Shown: in pieces, positions 7,988-28,983 of the stretch | How positions within the stretch are numbered: position 1 is the stretch's first letter | Layout: every line of letters begins with the position of its first letter | Source: a virus | Taxonomy: Duplodnaviria > Caudoviricetes | Length of the DNA stretch: 31,950 bases | Direction: 5' to 3' (one strand) | Virus record (IMG/VR): IMGVR_UViG_3300017766_004037 | Span: 1-31,950 of that record | Translations under genes and position numbers: made by a program | The notes under the pieces: generated by a model | Told to the model about the DNA's origin: nothing | The model's input: only the letters and a program-made list of their open reading frames with translations | Databases searched by the model: none

Positions 7988-8015
7988 ATTCTACCATATT
8001 TATGGTGGGTGTCAA
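7988..8015 (-). promoter_or_regulatory. Sigma70-type promoter of gp32 with a late box in its spacer
   Basis: TTGACA(8015-8010)-16 nt-TAGAAT(7993-7988) with extended TG; ATAAATA at 8003-7997. Confidence 0.8.
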
Positions 8016-8248
8016 TCATCAATAGGGAGCTTTTTCTTTTTTGGAACTTTTAAAAGATGCTTTTCTTTTGCTTCCTCTTGAATTTTTTCAATAATAGGCT
8101 TTGTTAAAAGTTTTCCAGCAGCGGCTGGCTCAATATTCATTTCTTCAGCCAATTCAATTATACAATCCATATAAGACAATTTTGTTGTTTGGACTCGTTT
8201 CATGACATTGGCTGAAAAGGCTAATTTTGCTTTTTCATCTAGATACAT
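8012..8248 (-). CDS. gp33: Late transcription coactivator gp33; start probably ATG 8248
   Basis: SYMDCIIELAEEMNIE...KLLTKPIIEKIQEEA...KLPI; adjacent to gp32; ATG 8254 abuts the -10 box so cannot be in the transcript. Confidence 0.9.
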   Translation of the reverse strand: MYLDEKAKLAFSANVMKRVQTTKLSYMDCIIELAEEMNIEPAAAGKLLTKPIIEKIQEEAKEKHLLKVPKKKKLPIDD

Positions 8249-8254
8249 ACCCAT

Positions 8255-11829: not shown

Positions 11830-14800
11830 TTAGTTATCGTAATATAAATCGCAACGAACATCTGATGTTTCTCCAATGATTTGAATTGGCACAGTATCAC
11901 TCGGGTCATCAAAGCACCTTGCTCTAAAATCTCCCACTTGTGTTCCCGCATCATCGCTAAAACCTTGGAATGCAATTGGAGCTCCAGTAAAGCCATAAGT
12001 TAAACCGGGACATTCCAGATTGTATGTTGATGGAATTTCTTCGTAAACTCTATACCAAAGATATGGTGGAATTTCTGAAATATTATCTTCTGGTGGACCC
12101 GGCAAAGGTTCGTTTCCTGGATAGTAAAGTCCCGGGGAATCTATTCCTGTATTTCCAGCCAATTCGTAGAACATTCCAGACGGCAAAGCGCAACACCATC
12201 TACAATTTTCACATACACGTTCTCCGTTTGGGCACCCAAAAGATGAATTGGGGCAATTACCAACGCCAGTTGGATTTGCTGGACTGGTTGGTCCACACCA
12301 ACACTCAGATGCACTCAACCCCGGAGGAATTCGCCCAGAATAATCTTTAAACGATGCCATTCCTTTTAGCCAATCATCGGTAGCAACAATAGACAAATAC
12401 ATATCTTTTTCATAATAATTTGCCGTTGCAGTTTCATTAAACGTGCCATTTGTTATGACTGGATCGCCATAATTACAATCTTTGCGCTGCCCATATGCAT
12501 GCACCCAACCACCGGGGCCTATTAGATCATAGGGACTGCGTGTCATACACCCGCTTTGTGGACAACGAGCATTACAAGGTTCTCCAGCACATAGATTTGC
12601 TGAAGGGCACTCCAAATTTCTTTGTTTTGATTGGTTGTAGTGGTCCTCTAGCTGTTTTAAATTGGGCCCACCGACATAAACTTTTGGATATTTTAAAACA
12701 TTTTCAACCGTATATGCATTTATCAAAGCATCCTTCGGGACCATTATTTCATTAAACAGTCTACTAGATGTCAACCCATAAACTTCACCCTCTGTTGGTC
12801 TATCGTATCCAACGAAGGCTGGACGGTACGGTAGCGGTGCATCTTTTACTCCATAGTTTTGAGTAGTGGTGTTATAAGCATAGTAATATTCTCTTCTAGC
12901 GTATAAAAATCCTGTAATATTAGTTTTAACAACACCACAGCATTCTCCTACATTTAATTGAAAATTTCCTCTACCGTTTAATTTACCAAAAGCCTTGGCT
13001 GATTGTATAAAGTAATCTTTATTTGAATTAAACCCGACTCTCCCGGTTATATAACCAAAACATCTTGTTGCAATATATTGGGCATCTGCATCACAGTTTA
13101 ATCTATATTGTTGTCTTGTATATGGAGGACATCCACATACGTCGTCTAAACACTGACACGAAATGACATTATTTGTAAAATTATTATATTGATACGCATA
13201 CGGCGAAGGACTTCCATCACCAATCCAACATATATCTCCGTTTGCATAACAACCACCGAAACTTCTATTCAATGCTACATTAGTATCCTGCAATATCCCC
13301 GGTTGTGTTCCTATACCAAAATCTTCAGGCTTTAGTCCATCTTCATTGTCTATGTTTCTTATTAACCCACATCCACCTCCATTAGAAGGATCATATGAGT
13401 GTAGTGGAGTAGCTTGTTGATTTCTTTTCCACGAACCTCTCATCCAATAATACTGAGGTATTCCCGTATAAGAGCGATTTATATCACCTTTTCTGTAGTA
13501 CACACTACAGGTGTCAGGTTTTGCTACTTGATTATCAATAAAATCCGTGCCCAACAAATGGCAAGGTCTTCCAAATAACCATTTTGTAATTTCCCAACGA
13601 CCTGGAACAGCTCTAAAAAATGCCTGTGATCTAAAATACTGCGGCAATGAATTGTAATCTTTAAACTGCCAAACTGCATGACCCGGTGAAAAGGAATCTC
13701 CATTCCACGTTTGTGCAACTAATCCAGCTGTGTATATTCCAGCTGCATTTCCATAAGTGGAAGTTATGTCCGTGTAATATTTTCCTTCCAGCCCTCCAGT
13801 TAAACCAAAATCATACAGACTATTTGTTTTACGTCCTTTTCTAACAAATATTTCTGTGCTGTTAGTGTATGCATTTTCTTTTTTATACAATACTGTAACA
13901 GCATTTGGCCCAGCAACAATTTTTTTAATATTGCTGTAATTTTTTCCATAAGATCCTGTCAAGCCATTTATTGGAATGCCGGAAACAGATTCGACCATTT
14001 CAGCATGACCCCAAATAACTAAACGATCAGTAGTTCCATCTTTTCTTGCCAAAATACTATAATCTGGGCCACCTTCTATAGCAAATATTTTTTTACTTTG
14101 ATACACTGTTTTGTTGGCTTCAGTGTAAACTAGGTAGGGAGTGTGGTCTGCATTTGTATCTGAAACCGAAGTATCTTTGCATCCATAAGTAAGACCTCCC
14201 AATGACCATTGATCTGCGTAAATTTCACCTGTTGGCAAGAAAACGTCTATGGCGTTAATTCCACTGTTGCCGCTAACATCCGTTTGTGTTGGACCCAAAA
14301 CAGTTCCATCGGGTTTTACTTTAACATATTGACCCCATATTTTAATATTGTTATCATCAGACAACGCAATAGTATGGTAGTGTCCTGTGGCTACATCTGT
14401 AAACACTGGCGTATCAACGCGAATCGACCCAGCATTGCCTCCATCAAATACATAACCCTTTGTATCATTTTCATCATTAATAAGAGAATCTATTCCAATT
14501 TGGTAAAGATAGCACCTAATGTCGCAGGGAGATGACTGATTTGATATTCTGTTACACTTAAATTCATTTATGTAAGTGACGCCTGGTATATTGTTTATTC
14601 TTTGAGCGTCGTAAAGCCGTTCCCATTCTTCGTTTGTAAAGTAACCAGGTTTTGGAAAGTTTTTATAAAAAGTTAAACTATTTGTTGCAACGTTTAATTT
14701 TTCTGATGATGCTGATGTTGGTTGTTTTACTGCAGATGCCGTGGGGTATCCATATGAAGTTTGTTTATTTGAACCGTCAAGATTACTTGAATCCGGTGTC

Positions 14801-17800
14801 ATGAAAAGAGCGCCATCAAATGTAATGGCTGCACTGTGGTTTACTCCCGAAGCAACATCTTTGTAAATAAAATAATTATTTTGTATTCTACCAACAGCCC
14901 CGGGAAGACCCAAAAATGGAATCCAACTTGGAACAAAATAATCAGAAATAAAATTATTTGATTGATAAAAAATACAATGGGGATTACTTCCCCACGCACG
15001 GATAGTATAAGCGCTCACAAATCCACTTTGGTTATCAAATTTTCCATAAAATGGTTGATAATTTGAATCACCGTTTTGTCGGAAGTATCCAGAATTTGAA
15101 AACAAACGCCGCTGTTGGTCTGAGCCAAAAGCATCTCCCTCGGTAGGGCCCAAAACTCTTCCCTGATTGTAATCTACTAAGGCCACAGCACTAGAACCTT
15201 TAGACGAAACTTTAAGTACTGTTCCATCACTCAAATTAGTAGAACTTGACACAGCTTGAAGTTCATCTGCGTAACTTAAGTGTGCAGGATAGCAACCAAG
15301 TTTTGCTACACTGTTAATTACACTCTGTGCATCTGTTCCACAGAAGCCGTTTGATTCGTGACCAAAAGCTTGAAGCTTACCAGAATTAGTTGTAGCAAAC
15401 CAAGTTCTATCTCCACCATCCAAATTAAAAAACTCTAAAGGGTAATCATCTGGTGGAATGAGGTTCGGTGAGTATCCATAATCATTACATCCACCTTCTT
15501 CGCAACCCCACGCTGTCAACCCTGCTCTATCTGGTGTTGGATACAGCTTGACTCTCCGTGGAGCCCAGAACATCTGTCCCGGAGCTCTTTGATGTGACTG
15601 AGGTCTGATAAGTTGTTTTATATTTTTTGAACTAAAATATGGTTTAATATTTTCCCATGTTTTTTCTGGTCCACAAGCACCAGTCAAAGTATACAAAAAA
15701 TCTATAAGATTTAAATATCCACTTTTTCCTCCAACCATGATATCATCCATGGAATCTCTGAATGTAACATCTATATCACCTGATGGAAGTTCTTCAACGG
15801 CAGTATTATCTAATATTTCAGAAAGTTCATCTGCAACGTCTGGGGCATGGTCTTTTACGCTTAAAATATTATATTTGATCATTTGTTTCAACCAAGTTGA
15901 AACAAAATTGTAATCATCAACATCCGATTTAAATATCAGTGGCTCGTTGTATCTGGTTTCTCCATTGCGAACCGTAATATTATAAAAATATTTGTAAAAC
16001 TGTTCTAAAAACTGTTCACCATCAAAATACTTACCATCAATTTTAATATCATATTTTTGCGACAACACTTCCATCGCATATATGTCAGCATAAAAAATTG
16101 GAACTGTAGAAGATCCATATATTACACTTCGTGGGAAAGATTTCATGGTTTGAAAACGTAAAGCTTCCCGAGGATCGTATGTAAACTTAGTTGGAGCTAC
16201 TATTCCACCATATGGGCGTTCGTATGGAAGAATAAGTAAACGAGCATGATTAAAGGTCGGTATAGGTGCTGGGCAAAAAAGAACTTTACTGTGATAAGCC
16301 CAGCATTCAAAGTGGTGATCAATGCCGACCAATCCGACTAATTTATGATATAACAGGTCTTTTTTATTGTAAGCTGTTTTAAACTTTACAGAAGACCATT
16401 CCATGTTGCCAGCTTGATTTTTACCAGTTTGAATTATGGTGCTTTTGTATGTTGGTCCTAAAGTTTCATACTCGGAAGGAATTGCACTTCCATAATTAAT
16501 AATATCATGTGCTGCTGTTGCAATTCTATTTGAAATTCTGTTTAGATATGGAGAAACTCCTCTACTAAAACAAGAAAACTGGTAATTGGGATTAAAAAAA
16601 GGAAAATCTGGATTAGGTGATGATGAAATAGTTGTATTACAATATGGACCAATAGTTTGTGGTGTTTTTCCAAATCCACTTGCCTTGGGCCAAGCTGCAG
16701 CGTTTAATCTTTTTACTTCAAAGCTTGGATCACAATCGCTACCACCAGAAATAGCAGAGTAGGAACGATAACAGGTCATACAATTTGCTTCAGTCGTAGT
16801 CATTCTTGGCAAGAATGGATCTGAAGAAGGAAAGTAGCCTCCCATGTTTTCTCTTTGAGAGACATTAAATTGTTTTTTAACAGTATCTACCAACCCACCA
16901 CTCAAATGTGGGTACGCAAAACACTGGCATGGAAAGTTTCCACGTTCTCTACAAATACAATTTAGACCCCGAGAACAAAGATCATTGTAATAGCTTTTTA
17001 TGCAACTTGCATCTAGATCTGGACCATTGTTTCCTCCATTGCTAGACTGATCCCGGACATCTCCAATCACAAGATCACATGTCCTATATGCTTCATTGCC
17101 CTCTAATCCTGTTCGTTTCCATCCCTGTCCTTGCGTGACACTTGGATTATAATTAAAAATATATTCTGGGGGATACCAAACTAAAGAACACTGTGAATAT
17201 CTGTATATCAAGTATAATGGCAATGCTCCGGGAGCTCCTCCGTTGAACAAACACATTTCACATTGCACATCTGGATCTATTTCACCCCCACCACGACCAG
17301 CGTCAATTCCTGCGTCAGCTACCCCTAGTCCCGGATCTAAGGACGGTCTAGCCCGAAAACCAACATTTGTATTTTGGTAACTATATTCATTTACATAGTC
17401 GCCAACAGACGATCTGTAATTTGTTTTAATTGGTGGATTTAAGCCTTGGTTTAAATCTTCAATTTCATTTGCACTGACCGTAGAGCCAGTTAACCCTTTA
17501 AACAAAATATTAAGAGTTTCAGCCTGCGGTGGGTTGATATACCCTTTCCAGAAATTTACATTTTGAAATGTAGATCCAATCGCATTGCCTAAGTTATCAG
17601 AATAAAATGGAGTACTTAAAACTTCTGTAACATTTTTAAATTGTCCATCAGTGTTTCCAAAATTTGGATCACAAAATTCAATACATTCTTCTCGGCAGTT
17701 TTCACAAAAATTAACATTTTTTCCATTGCAGTCTAAACCAACAGGCCGAATATTTCTTATACAATCAATATCATAACCATTGTTTTCCAAACACTGTTTG

Positions 17801-18018
17801 CATACACGATTTAAACTTAATTGATCTTTAAATCTTTGATTTGATTTTATTGGACTTAAAGTTTCAATTTTATTTGTAGTCGTATATGTATTTGGATTTT
17901 CAGCTACATATAATTCTTTATTTGGAAAAATAAACTGTGATCTACTACCTTTGAATGGAGTAATAAATGTTTTATTAAATTGTTTAAAAATACGAGGAAT
18001 GAAAGAATCAGAAGACAT
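11830..18018 (-). CDS. Giant Cys-rich protein with central RCC1/BLIP-II-like propeller repeats
   Basis: 2062 aa uninterrupted; YKDVASGVNHSAAITFDG, FTDVATGHYHTIALSDDNNIKIWG and IFAIEGGPDYSILARKDG repeats; Cys clusters on both sides. Confidence 0.8.
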   Translation of the reverse strand: MSSDSFIPRIFKQFNKTFITPFKGSRSQFIFPNKELYVAENPNTYTTTNKIETLSPIKSNQRFKDQLSLNRVCKQCLENNGYDIDCIRNIRPVGLDCNGKNVNFCENCREECIEFCDPNFGNTDGQFKNVTEVLSTPFYSDNLGNAIGSTFQNVNFWKGYINPPQAETLNILFKGLTGSTVSANEIEDLNQGLNPPIKTNYRSSVGDYVNEYSYQNTNVGFRARPSLDPGLGVADAGIDAGRGGGEIDPDVQCEMCLFNGGAPGALPLYLIYRYSQCSLVWYPPEYIFNYNPSVTQGQGWKRTGLEGNEAYRTCDLVIGDVRDQSSNGGNNGPDLDASCIKSYYNDLCSRGLNCICRERGNFPCQCFAYPHLSGGLVDTVKKQFNVSQRENMGGYFPSSDPFLPRMTTTEANCMTCYRSYSAISGGSDCDPSFEVKRLNAAAWPKASGFGKTPQTIGPYCNTTISSSPNPDFPFFNPNYQFSCFSRGVSPYLNRISNRIATAAHDIINYGSAIPSEYETLGPTYKSTIIQTGKNQAGNMEWSSVKFKTAYNKKDLLYHKLVGLVGIDHHFECWAYHSKVLFCPAPIPTFNHARLLILPYERPYGGIVAPTKFTYDPREALRFQTMKSFPRSVIYGSSTVPIFYADIYAMEVLSQKYDIKIDGKYFDGEQFLEQFYKYFYNITVRNGETRYNEPLIFKSDVDDYNFVSTWLKQMIKYNILSVKDHAPDVADELSEILDNTAVEELPSGDIDVTFRDSMDDIMVGGKSGYLNLIDFLYTLTGACGPEKTWENIKPYFSSKNIKQLIRPQSHQRAPGQMFWAPRRVKLYPTPDRAGLTAWGCEEGGCNDYGYSPNLIPPDDYPLEFFNLDGGDRTWFATTNSGKLQAFGHESNGFCGTDAQSVINSVAKLGCYPAHLSYADELQAVSSSTNLSDGTVLKVSSKGSSAVALVDYNQGRVLGPTEGDAFGSDQQRRLFSNSGYFRQNGDSNYQPFYGKFDNQSGFVSAYTIRAWGSNPHCIFYQSNNFISDYFVPSWIPFLGLPGAVGRIQNNYFIYKDVASGVNHSAAITFDGALFMTPDSSNLDGSNKQTSYGYPTASAVKQPTSASSEKLNVATNSLTFYKNFPKPGYFTNEEWERLYDAQRINNIPGVTYINEFKCNRISNQSSPCDIRCYLYQIGIDSLINDENDTKGYVFDGGNAGSIRVDTPVFTDVATGHYHTIALSDDNNIKIWGQYVKVKPDGTVLGPTQTDVSGNSGINAIDVFLPTGEIYADQWSLGGLTYGCKDTSVSDTNADHTPYLVYTEANKTVYQSKKIFAIEGGPDYSILARKDGTTDRLVIWGHAEMVESVSGIPINGLTGSYGKNYSNIKKIVAGPNAVTVLYKKENAYTNSTEIFVRKGRKTNSLYDFGLTGGLEGKYYTDITSTYGNAAGIYTAGLVAQTWNGDSFSPGHAVWQFKDYNSLPQYFRSQAFFRAVPGRWEITKWLFGRPCHLLGTDFIDNQVAKPDTCSVYYRKGDINRSYTGIPQYYWMRGSWKRNQQATPLHSYDPSNGGGCGLIRNIDNEDGLKPEDFGIGTQPGILQDTNVALNRSFGGCYANGDICWIGDGSPSPYAYQYNNFTNNVISCQCLDDVCGCPPYTRQQYRLNCDADAQYIATRCFGYITGRVGFNSNKDYFIQSAKAFGKLNGRGNFQLNVGECCGVVKTNITGFLYARREYYYAYNTTTQNYGVKDAPLPYRPAFVGYDRPTEGEVYGLTSSRLFNEIMVPKDALINAYTVENVLKYPKVYVGGPNLKQLEDHYNQSKQRNLECPSANLCAGEPCNARCPQSGCMTRSPYDLIGPGGWVHAYGQRKDCNYGDPVITNGTFNETATANYYEKDMYLSIVATDDWLKGMASFKDYSGRIPPGLSASECWCGPTSPANPTGVGNCPNSSFGCPNGERVCENCRWCCALPSGMFYELAGNTGIDSPGLYYPGNEPLPGPPEDNISEIPPYLWYRVYEEIPSTYNLECPGLTYGFTGAPIAFQGFSDDAGTQVGDFRARCFDDPSDTVPIQIIGETSDVRCDLYYDN

Positions 18019-21557: not shown

Positions 21558-22418
21558 ATGAAAAGTTTTAAAACATTTTTATCTGAAGATTTACGAGTAA
21601 AATCACAAGAATTAGATCCTACGGATCCTTTGACCCCAGTTTATTATGGACTAGTGTCTGCTGAACACAGAGGTCAGGTAAAAGACCCTACTGCATACGA
21701 TCCTAAATTGGCAATTCGAACAAAAGCAAGACATAAAGATCCTAAAGCAATGTCTACTGCGTATGGTCCGGTTCAAATTACTGGTAGTACAATGAGAGAT
21801 GCTCTACAAAGACACTCTAAATTTTTTAGTCCAGCGGGGGCTAAGTATGCCCAAGAATTTGTAAATCAGGCAGATAAATTTGCCAAAGCCAAAAAGGGTG
21901 ACAAAGCGTATGATTACGGCGGGGCTGGTGATCTTTCACACAGATCGTATCATGTTCCTTATCAAGAAGCTGGGCTTGCTGTAATAAAAGGTAAAATGAA
22001 AGATGCTGGAATTGATATAACAAAACCACTATCTGATAAAGACTTATCTACAACCATACAAAGATGGCGTGGTGTTCCAGAAACAAAAGACTCTGAATAC
22101 TATAAAGTCGCCAGAGCGGGATATGCCAAGTATAAAGAAATTGGAAATCAAGTATCCTTTAATCAATCTGCTAGCGCAAATCAACAAGCTTCCGGTGCTG
22201 GAATGAATATGGAAGATGATTACTTAAAGGTGCATGGATATGCACAGAGCCCAGTAAATTGGGCTGAAAAGTATCCTGAAAACTATAGCGTCAAAACGGA
22301 ACCAATTGGTTCAACCCCAGCGTTGGGCTCTTCTCAACAAACCACACCGGTACGCCGCCAGTCTTCCACTTTGCAAACCGCACCTTCTCGCCCAAATAAT
22401 ACTGGCGGTAAGCGATAA
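21558..22418 (+). CDS. Probable capsid-internal protein with lysozyme/transglycosylase-like motifs; start corrected to ATG 21558
   Basis: MKSFKTFLSE resembles the T4 capsid-targeting sequence; LVSAEH and STAYGPVQIT motifs. Confidence 0.6.
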   Translation: MKSFKTFLSEDLRVKSQELDPTDPLTPVYYGLVSAEHRGQVKDPTAYDPKLAIRTKARHKDPKAMSTAYGPVQITGSTMRDALQRHSKFFSPAGAKYAQEFVNQADKFAKAKKGDKAYDYGGAGDLSHRSYHVPYQEAGLAVIKGKMKDAGIDITKPLSDKDLSTTIQRWRGVPETKDSEYYKVARAGYAKYKEIGNQVSFNQSASANQQASGAGMNMEDDYLKVHGYAQSPVNWAEKYPENYSVKTEPIGSTPALGSSQQTTPVRRQSSTLQTAPSRPNNTGGKR

Positions 22419-22854
22419 TAGCATCAGTGTTCTTGTATGTGTCAGGCATAGCCTGAACAAAAACCGTAAGCTTGCCCTTTGCAATATTGTTTGGAGGGCT
22501 GTACAGTTCTCTGAACAACATAGCTTCCATTGAATGCGTTTTGCCATAACGCTGCTTGTATTCATTGCAGAGAGCATATGCATGCTTCCAAAGCCAAAGG
22601 TAGTTGGATCTGTTTGCTCTAGTCCAGATAGAGCAGGGGTGGTTGATCATGGTTGCCTTGCAAATATTTTGCAAGTTGCAGACAGAAGTCTTGTATTTTC
22701 TTTTGCCAGTATCAACCTGAACTTCTTTGCCGTCAACGACATGGTGTGCCGTAGACAAAAGCTGACATGACTCTACAATCATTTTTACAACATGCTTGTC
22801 ACACATCATGCGAGCAGACTCAACGGGATCGGCATCCAAAACAAAAATGTTCAT
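22291..22854 (-). CDS. Pyrimidine-dimer DNA glycosylase/endonuclease V-like protein
   Basis: MNIFVLD...CDKHVVKMIVESCQLLST, NHPCSIW, EY..RYGK.H, QAMPD.YK and AYRQYY family motifs. Confidence 0.85.
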   Translation of the reverse strand: MNIFVLDADPVESARMMCDKHVVKMIVESCQLLSTAHHVVDGKEVQVDTGKRKYKTSVCNLQNICKATMINHPCSIWTRANRSNYLWLWKHAYALCNEYKQRYGKTHSMEAMLFRELYSPPNNIAKGKLTVFVQAMPDTYKNTDAIIAYRQYYLGEKVRFAKWKTGGVPVWFVEKSPTLGLNQLVPF

Positions 22855-26055: not shown

Positions 26056-26084
26056 TAGACGCAAAGTACATACGGCTGTATAAT
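26056..26084 (+). promoter_or_regulatory. Sigma70-type promoter of the methyltransferase (leaderless)
   Basis: TAGACG-17 nt-TATAAT, then 6 nt to ATG 26091; no SD. Confidence 0.7.
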
Positions 26085-26090
26085 ATAGCA

Positions 26091-27182
26091 ATGAAAGTTG
26101 GAAGTCTATTTTCTGGCATTGGTGGATTTGATCTAGGATTTATTAATGCTGGATATGAAGTCTCATGGTGTGTAGAAAAAGACACTTTTTGTCAAAAAGT
26201 TTTGACAAAGCACTTTCCAAATACTAAAATTTGTGATGACATTACTCAAGTAGACCCAACCACACTGGATAAGATTGATGTCCTTGTGGGTGGGTTTCCT
26301 TGTCAAGATATATCGATAGCAGGTAAAAGAGAAGGTCTACAAGGAGCAAGGAGCTCACTATTCTATGAGTTTGACAGATATATTCGGGCAACCAATCCCC
26401 GGTTCGTCGTGGTCGAAAATGTCCCCGGACTGCTCTCAAGCAATTCAGGACACGACTTTGCTTTCGTCCTCAATGAAATGGTCGAAAGGTGGGGTGCTAA
26501 ATCTATCGCGTGGAGAATACTGGACAGTCAATTCTTTGGAGTTCCCCAAAGACGCAGACGAATCTTCTTTGTCGCAGATCTTGGAGGAGACTGTGCCTCA
26601 GAAATATTGTCTCTCTCCGACTGCAGCGCAGGGAATACTTCGCCGAGCCGCAAAGCGGGGAAAACAGTTACCTGCACCCCTGCAGGAATCGCTGGAACAT
26701 GTAGCAGCAAATGGGCAAAAGGCACCGGGGGACCAGCCGGAGACGAACATTACAACCTGATCGTATATCGGTGGCAGAATAGCAAGGAAGGGCTGGTAAA
26801 CGACGGTACCGTGGCTACGCTGAGAACCAGCATGGGAACTTCAGGGTTCTCGGAAGTAAACCATCCTATAGTCCATGCTTATTCAATAAGGGAGGATGCC
26901 AGTGCAAACACATTTAGTGCCACTCCAGTCACGGTATCCAATGCTTTGACTTCACTACAACCCAGCGTTCAAAGCCACCATGCACAAACTTTCATTGCAG
27001 CGCCTAGCGTAGTGAGAAGATTGACCCCACTTGAATGTGAAAGATTGCAGGGATTCCCGGACAATTGGACGGAAGGGCAATCAGATAGCCAGAGATATAA
27101 ACAACTCGGCAACGCTGTAACAGTCAACGTTGCCGAGTGGATTGCTAAAAGAATAAGATCAGTCAACAGGACCGTATCTTAA
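26091..27182 (+). CDS. DNA (cytosine-5) methyltransferase, orphan
   Basis: Motifs I FSGIGG, IV GFPCQD, VI ENVPG, VIII QRRRRIF, IX RRLTPLECERLQGFP and X YKQLGNAV. Confidence 0.97.
   Translation: MKVGSLFSGIGGFDLGFINAGYEVSWCVEKDTFCQKVLTKHFPNTKICDDITQVDPTTLDKIDVLVGGFPCQDISIAGKREGLQGARSSLFYEFDRYIRATNPRFVVVENVPGLLSSNSGHDFAFVLNEMVERWGAKSIAWRILDSQFFGVPQRRRRIFFVADLGGDCASEILSLSDCSAGNTSPSRKAGKTVTCTPAGIAGTCSSKWAKGTGGPAGDEHYNLIVYRWQNSKEGLVNDGTVATLRTSMGTSGFSEVNHPIVHAYSIREDASANTFSATPVTVSNALTSLQPSVQSHHAQTFIAAPSVVRRLTPLECERLQGFPDNWTEGQSDSQRYKQLGNAVTVNVAEWIAKRIRSVNRTVS
26365..26760 (+). CDS. Overprinted +1-frame ORF resembling the M.EcoHK31I beta polypeptide
   Basis: 131 aa nested in the MTase gene; AAGGAG at 26348-26353; SSLSQILE...PQKYCLSPTAAQGILRRAAKRGKQLP..L..SL. 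Confidence 0.75.
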   Translation: MSLTDIFGQPIPGSSWSKMSPDCSQAIQDTTLLSSSMKWSKGGVLNLSRGEYWTVNSLEFPKDADESSLSQILEETVPQKYCLSPTAAQGILRRAAKRGKQLPAPLQESLEHVAANGQKAPGDQPETNITT

Positions 27183-27401
27183 TCTTTCTATTTCTGGATC
27201 ATTTGGATCGTGTTTTGGAAATTTTGGTTCTTTTTCTTTTTTGGGCGAGTCTGAGTTGCCCTTTTTACTATGATTTTTTTTGCCTTTTTTTGCTTCTAAA
27301 AGATTATTTAAAGCTTGGTCATGAAGAGCTTGAAGGCTTTCTAATTGAAGTTCAAGCTTCTGAGAAAGGTTTCTGTAATATAGGTGGGTTACTGGGTTCA
27401 T
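27159..27401 (-). CDS. Small late protein, probably capsid-internal
   Basis: 80 aa; LLE-A site followed by a Lys-rich tail; late box upstream. Confidence 0.7.
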   Translation of the reverse strand: MNPVTHLYYRNLSQKLELQLESLQALHDQALNNLLEAKKGKKNHSKKGNSDSPKKEKEPKFPKHDPNDPEIERLRYGPVD

Positions 27402-28370: not shown

Positions 28371-28502
28371 TTAGGAGTGTTTGTTGTAATGATCCGAGTC
28401 CACGATCATACAAAAAATTCCATATGCAATTAAGCCAAGACCTGCAAGACCCATAATGAACAGCCCCAAAAGGGGGACCCAATTTTGCTTAATGACTTCC
28501 AT
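28371..28502 (-). CDS. Small single-pass membrane protein (43 aa)
   Basis: MEVIKQNWVPLLGLFIMGLAGLGLIAYGIFCMI; TATAAT at 28514-28509, 6 nt upstream of the ATG (leaderless spacing). Confidence 0.6.
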   Translation of the reverse strand: MEVIKQNWVPLLGLFIMGLAGLGLIAYGIFCMIVDSDHYNKHS

Positions 28503-28848
28503 AGGAATATTATATAGGAAAACCCAGATAAAAACAACCCTTAGAGGGGACCTATAAAAGGGACCCAGAGGGGACCCATTTTCATGGAGCCAAGGGGACC
28601 CATTTTTCCAAGGGTTGGGCGGAGGTTCGGGGGGACCCATTCTGGGACTCCGAGGGGGACCCATTTTGGGACTCCGAGGGGACCCATTTTCTCGGAGGGT
28701 ATTTGAGGGTTCCGTGGGGGGACCCGTTTTTGAATTTGAGGGGTATGGGGGATTCTAAAAGGGGACCCATGTTTTTGAAGGAATTTTGAAAAATTTAGAG
28801 AAGATTGGCAAGCCGAGACCCGAACAGAACCCGAACGGGACCCATTTT
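28474..28848 (+). repeat. Cluster of co-oriented GGGACCC(ATTTT) repeats
   Basis: Exact GGGACCC at 28474, 28560, 28571, 28595, 28632, 28656, 28679, 28719, 28762 and 28837, plus degenerate copies. Confidence 0.92.
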
Positions 28849-28868
28849 ACTGTTCGGACCGGCTTATC
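28810..28868 (-). ncRNA. Degenerate hairpin element, copy 1
   Basis: AAGCCG/CGGCTT outer stem ending GGCTTATC; CCGAACAG/CTGTTCGG inner stem; leftward TTGACG at 28905-28900 with a poor -10. Confidence 0.35.
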
Positions 28869-28983
28869 GGGCCTGCCCCCTAGCATCATGGATGTCAGCC
28901 GTCAAGCAGAATCCTGGCGGATTTGCAGAAATATTTATGGCCGTCCGATAATAATTTATTCGCGCAGAATGCGTACTACCCTC

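Follow-up and report, generated by a model that had tools for sequence, protein, structure and literature searches.

Few long nested genes have been proven in bacteria or phages, and the methyltransferase M.EcoHK31I has been regarded as a peculiar case that conserved motif IX accounts for. This Escherichia coli enzyme recognizes YGGCCR and consists of an alpha chain of 309 amino acids and a beta chain of 176 amino acids (available text of PMC2836561 and PMC3404938). According to the available part of the deletion study, alpha is inactive without beta, activity drops when beta is truncated from delta-37 onwards and falls sharply at delta-65 to delta-70, and the deletions weaken binding to alpha (higher Kd); downstream Met codons rescued activity, with beta starting at internal AUGs (PMC2836561). 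In M.AquI the two polypeptides are split within the variable region, the small chain carrying the distal variable region and motifs IX-X (available text of PMC3404938). Two genes of Streptococcus phage MM1 1998, orf13 and orf14, are annotated as ‘C5 methyltransferase alpha subunit’ and ‘beta subunit’ (GenBank DQ113772), and the MM1 methyltransferases have been termed putative (PMC8637289).

The DNA analyzed here (the window) is an entire virus contig of 31,950 bases that includes T4-like genes for a single-strand binding protein, a tail tube and a baseplate hub (PHROG matches). Near-identical DNA is present in freshwater and lake metagenomes, 18 runs containing at least half of its words. The window encodes a predicted C5 methyltransferase alpha chain and, in the +1 frame, a beta ORF that is under selection and matches a segment which alpha lacks; we consider it likely (probability about 0.8) that beta binds alpha and completes a two-chain enzyme.

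The methyltransferase gene and its nested frame

Alpha covers positions 1-322 of the 324-position PF00145 profile (E 8e-71) and also matches TIGR00675. Motifs I, IV (PC), VI (ENV), VIII (Q.R.R), IX and X occur in order, with their invariant columns, in the family alignment and in an alignment with M.HhaI. By its motifs alpha is a C5 cytosine DNA methyltransferase, for which catalytic activity is predicted. The main frame had been said to keep a canonical motif IX, and this is confirmed by the alignment of RRLTPLECERLQGFP to M.HhaI residues 271-320. M.HhaI is also the top Foldseek match of the AlphaFold model of alpha (E 5e-17), which is confident over residues ~1-175 (except 75-87) and 306-360, with pLDDT <50 at residues 177-305. 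The modules listed for the variable region (Table 1) are defined by a pattern that we take to be the signature of TRD-like modules. The 78% identical relative L291 lacks 126 nt in frame compared with window positions ~26883-27008, about one such module, and this loss suggests that specificity is modular, as it is in phage methyltransferases with several targets.

Table 1. Coordinates of the methyltransferase locus in the window and of unannotated nested beta genes in related records.
Feature	Position	Strand	Remarks
Sigma-70-like promoter, TAGACG-17-TATAAT	26056..26084	+	-10 box ends 6 nt 5' of the alpha ATG
Alpha chain, 363-aa C5 cytosine methyltransferase (predicted)	26091..27182	+	Motifs I-VIII, variable region, IX, X
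AAGGAG, candidate RBS of beta	26348..26353	+	11 nt before the ATG; second copy at 26341-26346
Nested beta gene, 131 aa	26365..26760	+	+1 frame, ATG start; EcoHK31I beta homologue without motif IX
Conserved beta domain, residues ~35-115	26467..26709	+	W..GG, GEYW, FP..ESSLSQILE, KY.LS, two helices
Poorly conserved linker, alpha residues ~166-200	26586..26690	+	DNA constrained mainly by the beta frame; from column conservation and substitutions vs. L291
Alpha variable region, ~3 putative TRD-like modules	26688..27005	+	From T-L/G-G patterns in the alignment
Motif IX in alpha frame (VRRLTPLECERLQGFP)	27012..27059	+	M.HhaI alignment, family alignment
Motif X in alpha frame (SQRYKQLGNAVTVNVAEWIA)	27081..27164	+	M.HhaI alignment, family alignment
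Terminator-like hairpin and T run	27243..27261	+	Downstream of the methyltransferase gene; consensus match only
Unannotated nested beta, P1-type dmt	L082:2252-2740
Unannotated nested beta, mycobacteriophage Omega gp127	L083:1866-2339
Unannotated nested beta, pneumophage SpSL1 cds15	L298, inside 528-1610

The sigma-70-like site upstream of alpha is not significant by itself, as five such sites were found in the window and 4.7 are expected by chance. The arrangement TATAAT-N6-ATG is kept in L285, L286, L290 and L291, and the -35 region is changed in three of them. Because the -10 box lies so close to the start codon and a Shine-Dalgarno sequence (SD) is absent, the alpha mRNA is likely leaderless. 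A TATAAT is also found very near the starts of ORFs 8012-8254 and 22291-22854. Other genes of the window have TATAAATA-like boxes, which we take to be the T4 late promoter motif, a few bases 5' of starts that have no nearby SD (27433 on the + strand; 25715, 27401 and 20131 on the - strand), and the methyltransferase gene with its sigma-70-like signals sits among them. The ORFs flanking alpha have no significant match in Pfam or PHROG, and comparison of alpha DNA with E. coli genomes gave short matches only.

Several other properties of the window were recorded. CCWGG is rarer than expected (20 observed vs. 43.8 expected, raw counts over the whole window), and TCGA, GTAC and GGCC are likewise under-represented (raw ratios 0.58-0.67); these low values may mirror host restriction sites. 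The stretch ~28400-28900 is dense in repeated words of the GGGTCCC/GGGACCC type, which appear in chance translations as recurring NGSP and KWVP, and is possibly made up of non-coding repeats or an origin. An ORF of 2,062 amino acids at 11830-18018 (-) has no PHROG match at E 0.01.

The 131-codon +1-frame ORF with its own AAGGAG is as first described; it spans motifs VI-VIII and encodes LSQILEETVPQKYCLSPTAAQGILRRAAKRGKQLP. Beta begins 274 nt inside the alpha ORF, lies wholly within it, and extends ~55 codons beyond motif VIII, this last portion being its best conserved. Both AAGGAG copies double as the alpha codons Q-G-A-R-S, and the beta ATG is formed at the TAT-GAG junction within alpha F-Y-E. 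The SD of beta has the second-strongest anti-SD pairing among 33 starts scored in the window, and AAGGAG together with the 131-codon frame is kept in all five close relatives that cover the start. More distant relatives have no AAGGAG at that place, and the position of the start is not conserved family-wide. Further in-frame ATGs lie at 26419 and 26473; since downstream Met codons rescued EcoHK31I, silent removal of ATG 26365 alone, which had been proposed as an activity test, may not suffice to abolish beta.

The only confidently predicted parts of beta are helices at residues 85-98 and 104-119. Beta matches PHROG 16143 (E 4e-10) and no model in Pfam or NCBIfam. For its structural model Foldseek gave no match with E ≤0.001, and the best VIA match (Z 5.1), a sigma-factor helix pair, is uninformative with two confident helices. 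Profile searches with beta gave 0 matches among PDB sequences, and ESM Atlas returned unnamed clusters only, mostly viral. Two RNA runs yield one short contig each, one of them outside the gene and the other (193 nt) covering 26530-26720 with strand and translation not readable from it; these contigs are no evidence of expression. No frameshift indel is listed in the methyltransferase gene among contigs from 8 runs.

Selection on the two frames and the counterpart of the beta domain

Stops in the nested frame of close homologues, together with a lack of similarity to beta, had been named as what would refute the nested gene. Across 50 homologous genes, which are related and not independent, none of the 4,508 +1-frame codons aligned to alpha 91-180 is a stop; bins outside alpha 91-195 have stop rates of 1.7-13%, and the +2 frame has 4-11% in the same bins. 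The +1 frame is open across alpha 92-195 in 45 of the 50 genes vs. 0.13 expected from synonymous resampling. These values make it extremely improbable that the ORF is a by-product of codons conserved in alpha and no gene. The ATG, the AAGGAG and a KMS motif do stem from conserved alpha codons, but Dcm, the enzymes of phages H2 and SPbetaL3 and a fused family (see below) share the motifs and yet have a closed +1 frame, and the best-conserved part of beta falls where alpha is poorly conserved.

Synonymous-site constraint, the other check that had been suggested, was also found: in L285, alpha-synonymous change is suppressed inside the overlap (3/51 and 6/42 sites) relative to the regions before (16/61) and after it (48/59). 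Comparison with L291, the most distant of the close relatives, gave dN/dS values of ~0.24 for alpha and ~0.8 for beta over motifs VI-VIII, and of ~0.7 and ~0.35, respectively, past motif VIII, a crossover in which alpha is held more tightly over VI-VIII and beta after VIII; the close relatives in this comparison are few and not independent. Column conservation agrees with the crossover, as alpha goes down to 0.26-0.42 at residues ~166-200 and beta stands at 0.36-0.63. Judged by these substitution patterns, both frames are under selection and the nested ORF is a selected gene.

The likeness of beta to EcoHK31I beta that was first noted proved to be real. The reference was the primer-matched allele in NZ_CP024886.1 (L081; primer from PMC2836561); among 5,426 E. 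coli genomes searched with this primer, 81 carry an EcoHK31I-type locus. The L081 locus encodes a 309-aa alpha and a 176-aa +1-frame beta. Window beta shares 45% identity with L081 beta over 89 aa (E 4e-24), and the alphas share 43% over 208 aa. The matched stretch corresponds to EcoHK31I beta residues 16-102 and ends before motif IX, which window beta does not have. By the primer sequences in the available part of PMC2836561, WSNSG starts with residue 37 of EcoHK31I beta and LSQVLE occupies residues 65-70, and both stretches are within the part common to window beta; the deletion effects could instead be lost docking for motif IX. The suggestion that beta has a role other than supplying motif IX is supported, in that homology stops before IX and the shared part has an in-frame counterpart in single-chain enzymes.

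This counterpart was detected with an HMM of beta 56-112: of 66 single-chain enzymes, 13 scored ≥6 bits in the in-frame window that follows motif VIII (best score 18.8 bits; E. coli Dcm, 12.6); controls reached this level in 0/66 pre-VIII windows, 1/66 reversed sequences and 0/1,320 shuffles. The other 53 enzymes scored <6 bits, and the segment is not a universal sequence motif. A Dcm-clade profile, made from 19 enzymes for which N-terminal similarity was the only selection criterion, aligns to beta 64-98 (HHalign 91.9%, E 7e-7; 16 controls ≤0.54%). The match spans only 35 columns, of which the first ~10 (LSQILE) coincide with the tail of alpha motif VIII and may be partly a by-product of alpha codons. 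The +1 frame of Dcm has weak matches to the N-terminal motifs of beta as well. Single-sequence comparison with Dcm is weak (2.8 and 7.6 bits), and the claim of a shared segment rests instead on the controlled HMM-window and HHalign tests. The enzymes of Bacillus phage H2 and of SPbetaL3 have the segment in frame (25.3 bits) and 11 stops in the +1 frame. Among nested-type alphas, an in-frame segment was found in 0/162 (duplicates included; best score -1.1 bits).

A fused family (L119:2405-3886, L136:2390-3883, L139:2396-3814; proteins P0325-P0444) has the domain in frame after motif X, and the order catalytic region, IX, X, domain holds for 118 of 120 listed homologues. The C-terminal domain aligns with beta 35-120 (HHalign 99.1%, 84 columns) and begins at the W..GG motif, the place where, in the published EcoHK31I deletions as far as available, truncation starts to hurt. 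The first three loci have no nested beta, and the former +1 frame contains 3, 7 and 4 stops, being broken in 3/3 genes checked; the fused family is a resolved gene overlap in which the nested frame has decayed. The distribution of the segment is complementary: after motif VIII in the Dcm clade and H2, after motif X in the fused family, and in the +1 frame and absent from alpha in nested-type genes. A locus with motif VIII running in frame into the beta core (L149:2480-4287) is near-identical to the intact nested L100, its in-frame core probably being due to a small deletion, a mutation or an assembly error, and was excluded from the analysis.

Since the beta domain matches the post-VIII segment of single-chain enzymes that alpha lacks, beta likely completes the enzyme. 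We regard it as unlikely that beta, as a regulator or independent phage protein, is no structural part of the enzyme and that alpha works alone, beta having become essential only when it acquired motif IX in EcoHK31I. Alpha does have motifs I-X and a core that AlphaFold folds without beta, a copy of the segment is undetectable in the 53 low-scoring single-chain enzymes, and most of the nested genes found come from phages, plasmids and prophage-like loci, with those in the phylum samples confined to seed genomes. Against a separate function, the domain occurs in frame at two positions in single-chain enzymes and the nested frame decays there; long homologues consist of beta joined to TRD-IX-X (motif IV in 0 of 120 listed); and the alpha model has no confident structure between residues 177 and 305.

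In the two-chain reading, alpha and beta would be made from one mRNA, probably leaderless for alpha, with beta translated separately from an internal start at 26365 or 26419. Beta residues ~35-115 may dock on alpha as a connector between the catalytic domain and the part with the TRD and motif IX, taking the place of the start of the variable region, where alpha's own chain would be an unconstrained linker; the first ~34 residues of beta would be a dispensable leader. As a presumed orphan enzyme, the methyltransferase may methylate phage DNA and shield the T4-like phage from host restriction. If beta is needed, codon-optimized or resynthesized phage methyltransferase genes would lose beta and score as inactive, and dN/dS estimates, structure prediction and annotation currently cover half the enzyme. 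The fused family offers a natural control for the resolution of the overlap.

Layouts, distribution and history

In all 80 viral loci retrieved by alpha, a separate +1-frame ORF matches beta (catalytic ORF chosen by HMM), and 74 of 80 bacterial and archaeal loci have a +1-frame beta core. The register between the core and motif VIII is fixed (at or near -17 nt in most of these 74 loci), as would be expected if programmed ribosomal frameshifting joined the frames into one chain and beta had no start of its own; that a beta homologue follows motif VIII in single-chain enzymes also fits. We nevertheless hold frameshifting to be very unlikely, because the core overlaps motif VIII and a shifted chain would lose part of either, beta stops before the TRD, IX and X, ~60 stop-free codons upstream of the core would be unneeded for a shift at motif VIII, and EcoHK31I beta initiates at internal AUGs in the available text of PMC2836561.

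The layouts of 151 distinct genes are not family frequencies, as the sample was chosen by likeness to window alpha and partly by motif IX pattern. Motif IX, assigned by HMMs, is in alpha in 106 genes (90 with IX and X, 16 with X unseen), whereas only 6 have the EcoHK31I layout; IX-X are in a third ORF in 13, beta continues through IX and X in 11, 5 have no nested beta, and 10 are unassigned. One gene, L082, did not reach the threshold for the catalytic region and was analyzed on its own. A separate search found 576 long proteins with the beta domain; of the 120 listed, none has motif IV and most run into IX and X.

The nested layout is present in Proteobacteria, Bacillota, Actinomycetota, Bacteroidota, archaeal records and many phages. 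Of 71 genes parsed in phylum samples (outside Bacillota) and controls, 5 are nested-type, all from seed genomes; the phylum-sample loci were the best PF00145 scorers, which favors single chains. With clustering at 50% identity, 5,937 protein clusters match the beta profile; for the single query, 201 phage and 535 plasmid records were retrieved. The layout is widespread in phages and mostly unannotated.

A tree of the catalytic region, rooted with the Dcm clade, places the EcoHK31I type (SH-aLRT 94) inside the window type, along with the fused type (SH-aLRT 96) and the long-beta type, and places the phage H2 single-chain enzyme among nested-type genes (92, unstarred). A single clade for the window type was rejected (AU test, p 8e-38, 52 rows), with a similar picture at 94 rows; both trees are quick searches on the dually constrained catalytic region only and depend on the outgroup. 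In these trees the window layout is paraphyletic with respect to the EcoHK31I type. Because it is nested inside the window type, EcoHK31I is likely a derived form, with the window type probably its parent form: the window layout would be older, and motif IX would have moved onto the end of beta later.

The original prediction had offered, as one option, that the window is an evolutionary intermediate. The counts above, from a sample biased towards this layout, and the paraphyly in the trees do not support it. Several layouts do exist that differ by frameshifts downstream of the core, as might be seen if a redundant beta were on its way in or out, but a short-lived passage from a single-chain enzyme to EcoHK31I is scarcely probable when this is the commonest layout sampled, is spread over several phyla and many phages and has a beta under purifying selection in close relatives, with the EcoHK31I type being one clade within it.

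For the family as a whole, we find it reasonably probable that a large group from phages and mobile elements, including P1-type Dmt, consists of obligate two-chain enzymes in which a structural domain of the variable region has moved to the +1 frame over motifs VI-VIII and beyond; that this domain is mobile in evolution; that EcoHK31I beta serves mainly to supply this domain, rather than motif IX; and that the family records both the birth and the resolution of a long gene overlap. The positions taken by a mobile domain would be after VIII in frame, nested alone, nested with IX, nested with TRD-IX-X, and C-terminal, with decay of the nested frame following the last of these moves. In-vivo m5C is attributed to SpSL1 cds15 in the available part of PMC6755750. 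This gene has the layout of the window, with beta not annotated; by that attribution, nested-layout genes can be active in their native form. In the literature searched, which takes in few subscription papers and neither the EcoHK31I nor the MM1 original, there is no family-wide account of the nested gene and no report that beta is homologous to the post-VIII segment.

Comparison with known systems

The window is a variant of the M.EcoHK31I arrangement. As in M.EcoHK31I, beta is nested in the +1 frame with its start at nearly the same place (offsets of 274 nt in the window and 310 nt in EcoHK31I), and alpha has no in-frame segment. Unlike M.EcoHK31I, in which motif IX ends beta and is absent from alpha, the window has motif IX in alpha. 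A restriction endonuclease adjoins the EcoHK31I locus (L081), whereas none of the neighbors of the window gene matches a nuclease family in Pfam or PHROG, profiles that a divergent nuclease could escape. The heterodimer and its activity are proven for M.EcoHK31I and predicted for the window; the departure in motif IX notwithstanding, the two likely share the same two-chain working.

In phage MM1, a 385-aa alpha with motifs IX and X contains a nested 141-aa +1-frame beta with the core and without IX; MM1 shares the window layout, which had thus been annotated previously. The alphas are only ~33% identical, and MM1 beta lacks the second helix, terminating shortly after KY.LS. The Dcm clade (PDB 3ME5, 3LX6) and phage H2 (M72412) share the L..IL...V..KY.L segment and a helix with window beta, but have them in frame, 25-60 residues after motif VIII, in a single chain with a closed +1 frame; no counterpart of W..GG/GEYW or of the second helix was found in them. 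By its published description, as far as available, M.AquI resembles the window as a natural two-chain C5 methyltransferase, and more particularly those relatives in which beta continues into TRD-IX-X; window beta stops earlier, and the TRD-like region, IX and X are all in alpha. P1-type Dmt (phage JL22 gp72), mycobacteriophage Omega gp127/gp128 and SpSL1 cds15 each have an intact +1-frame nested beta that is unannotated in their records (Table 1); Dmt carries a fused Dam domain, and in Omega a third ORF encodes IX-X.
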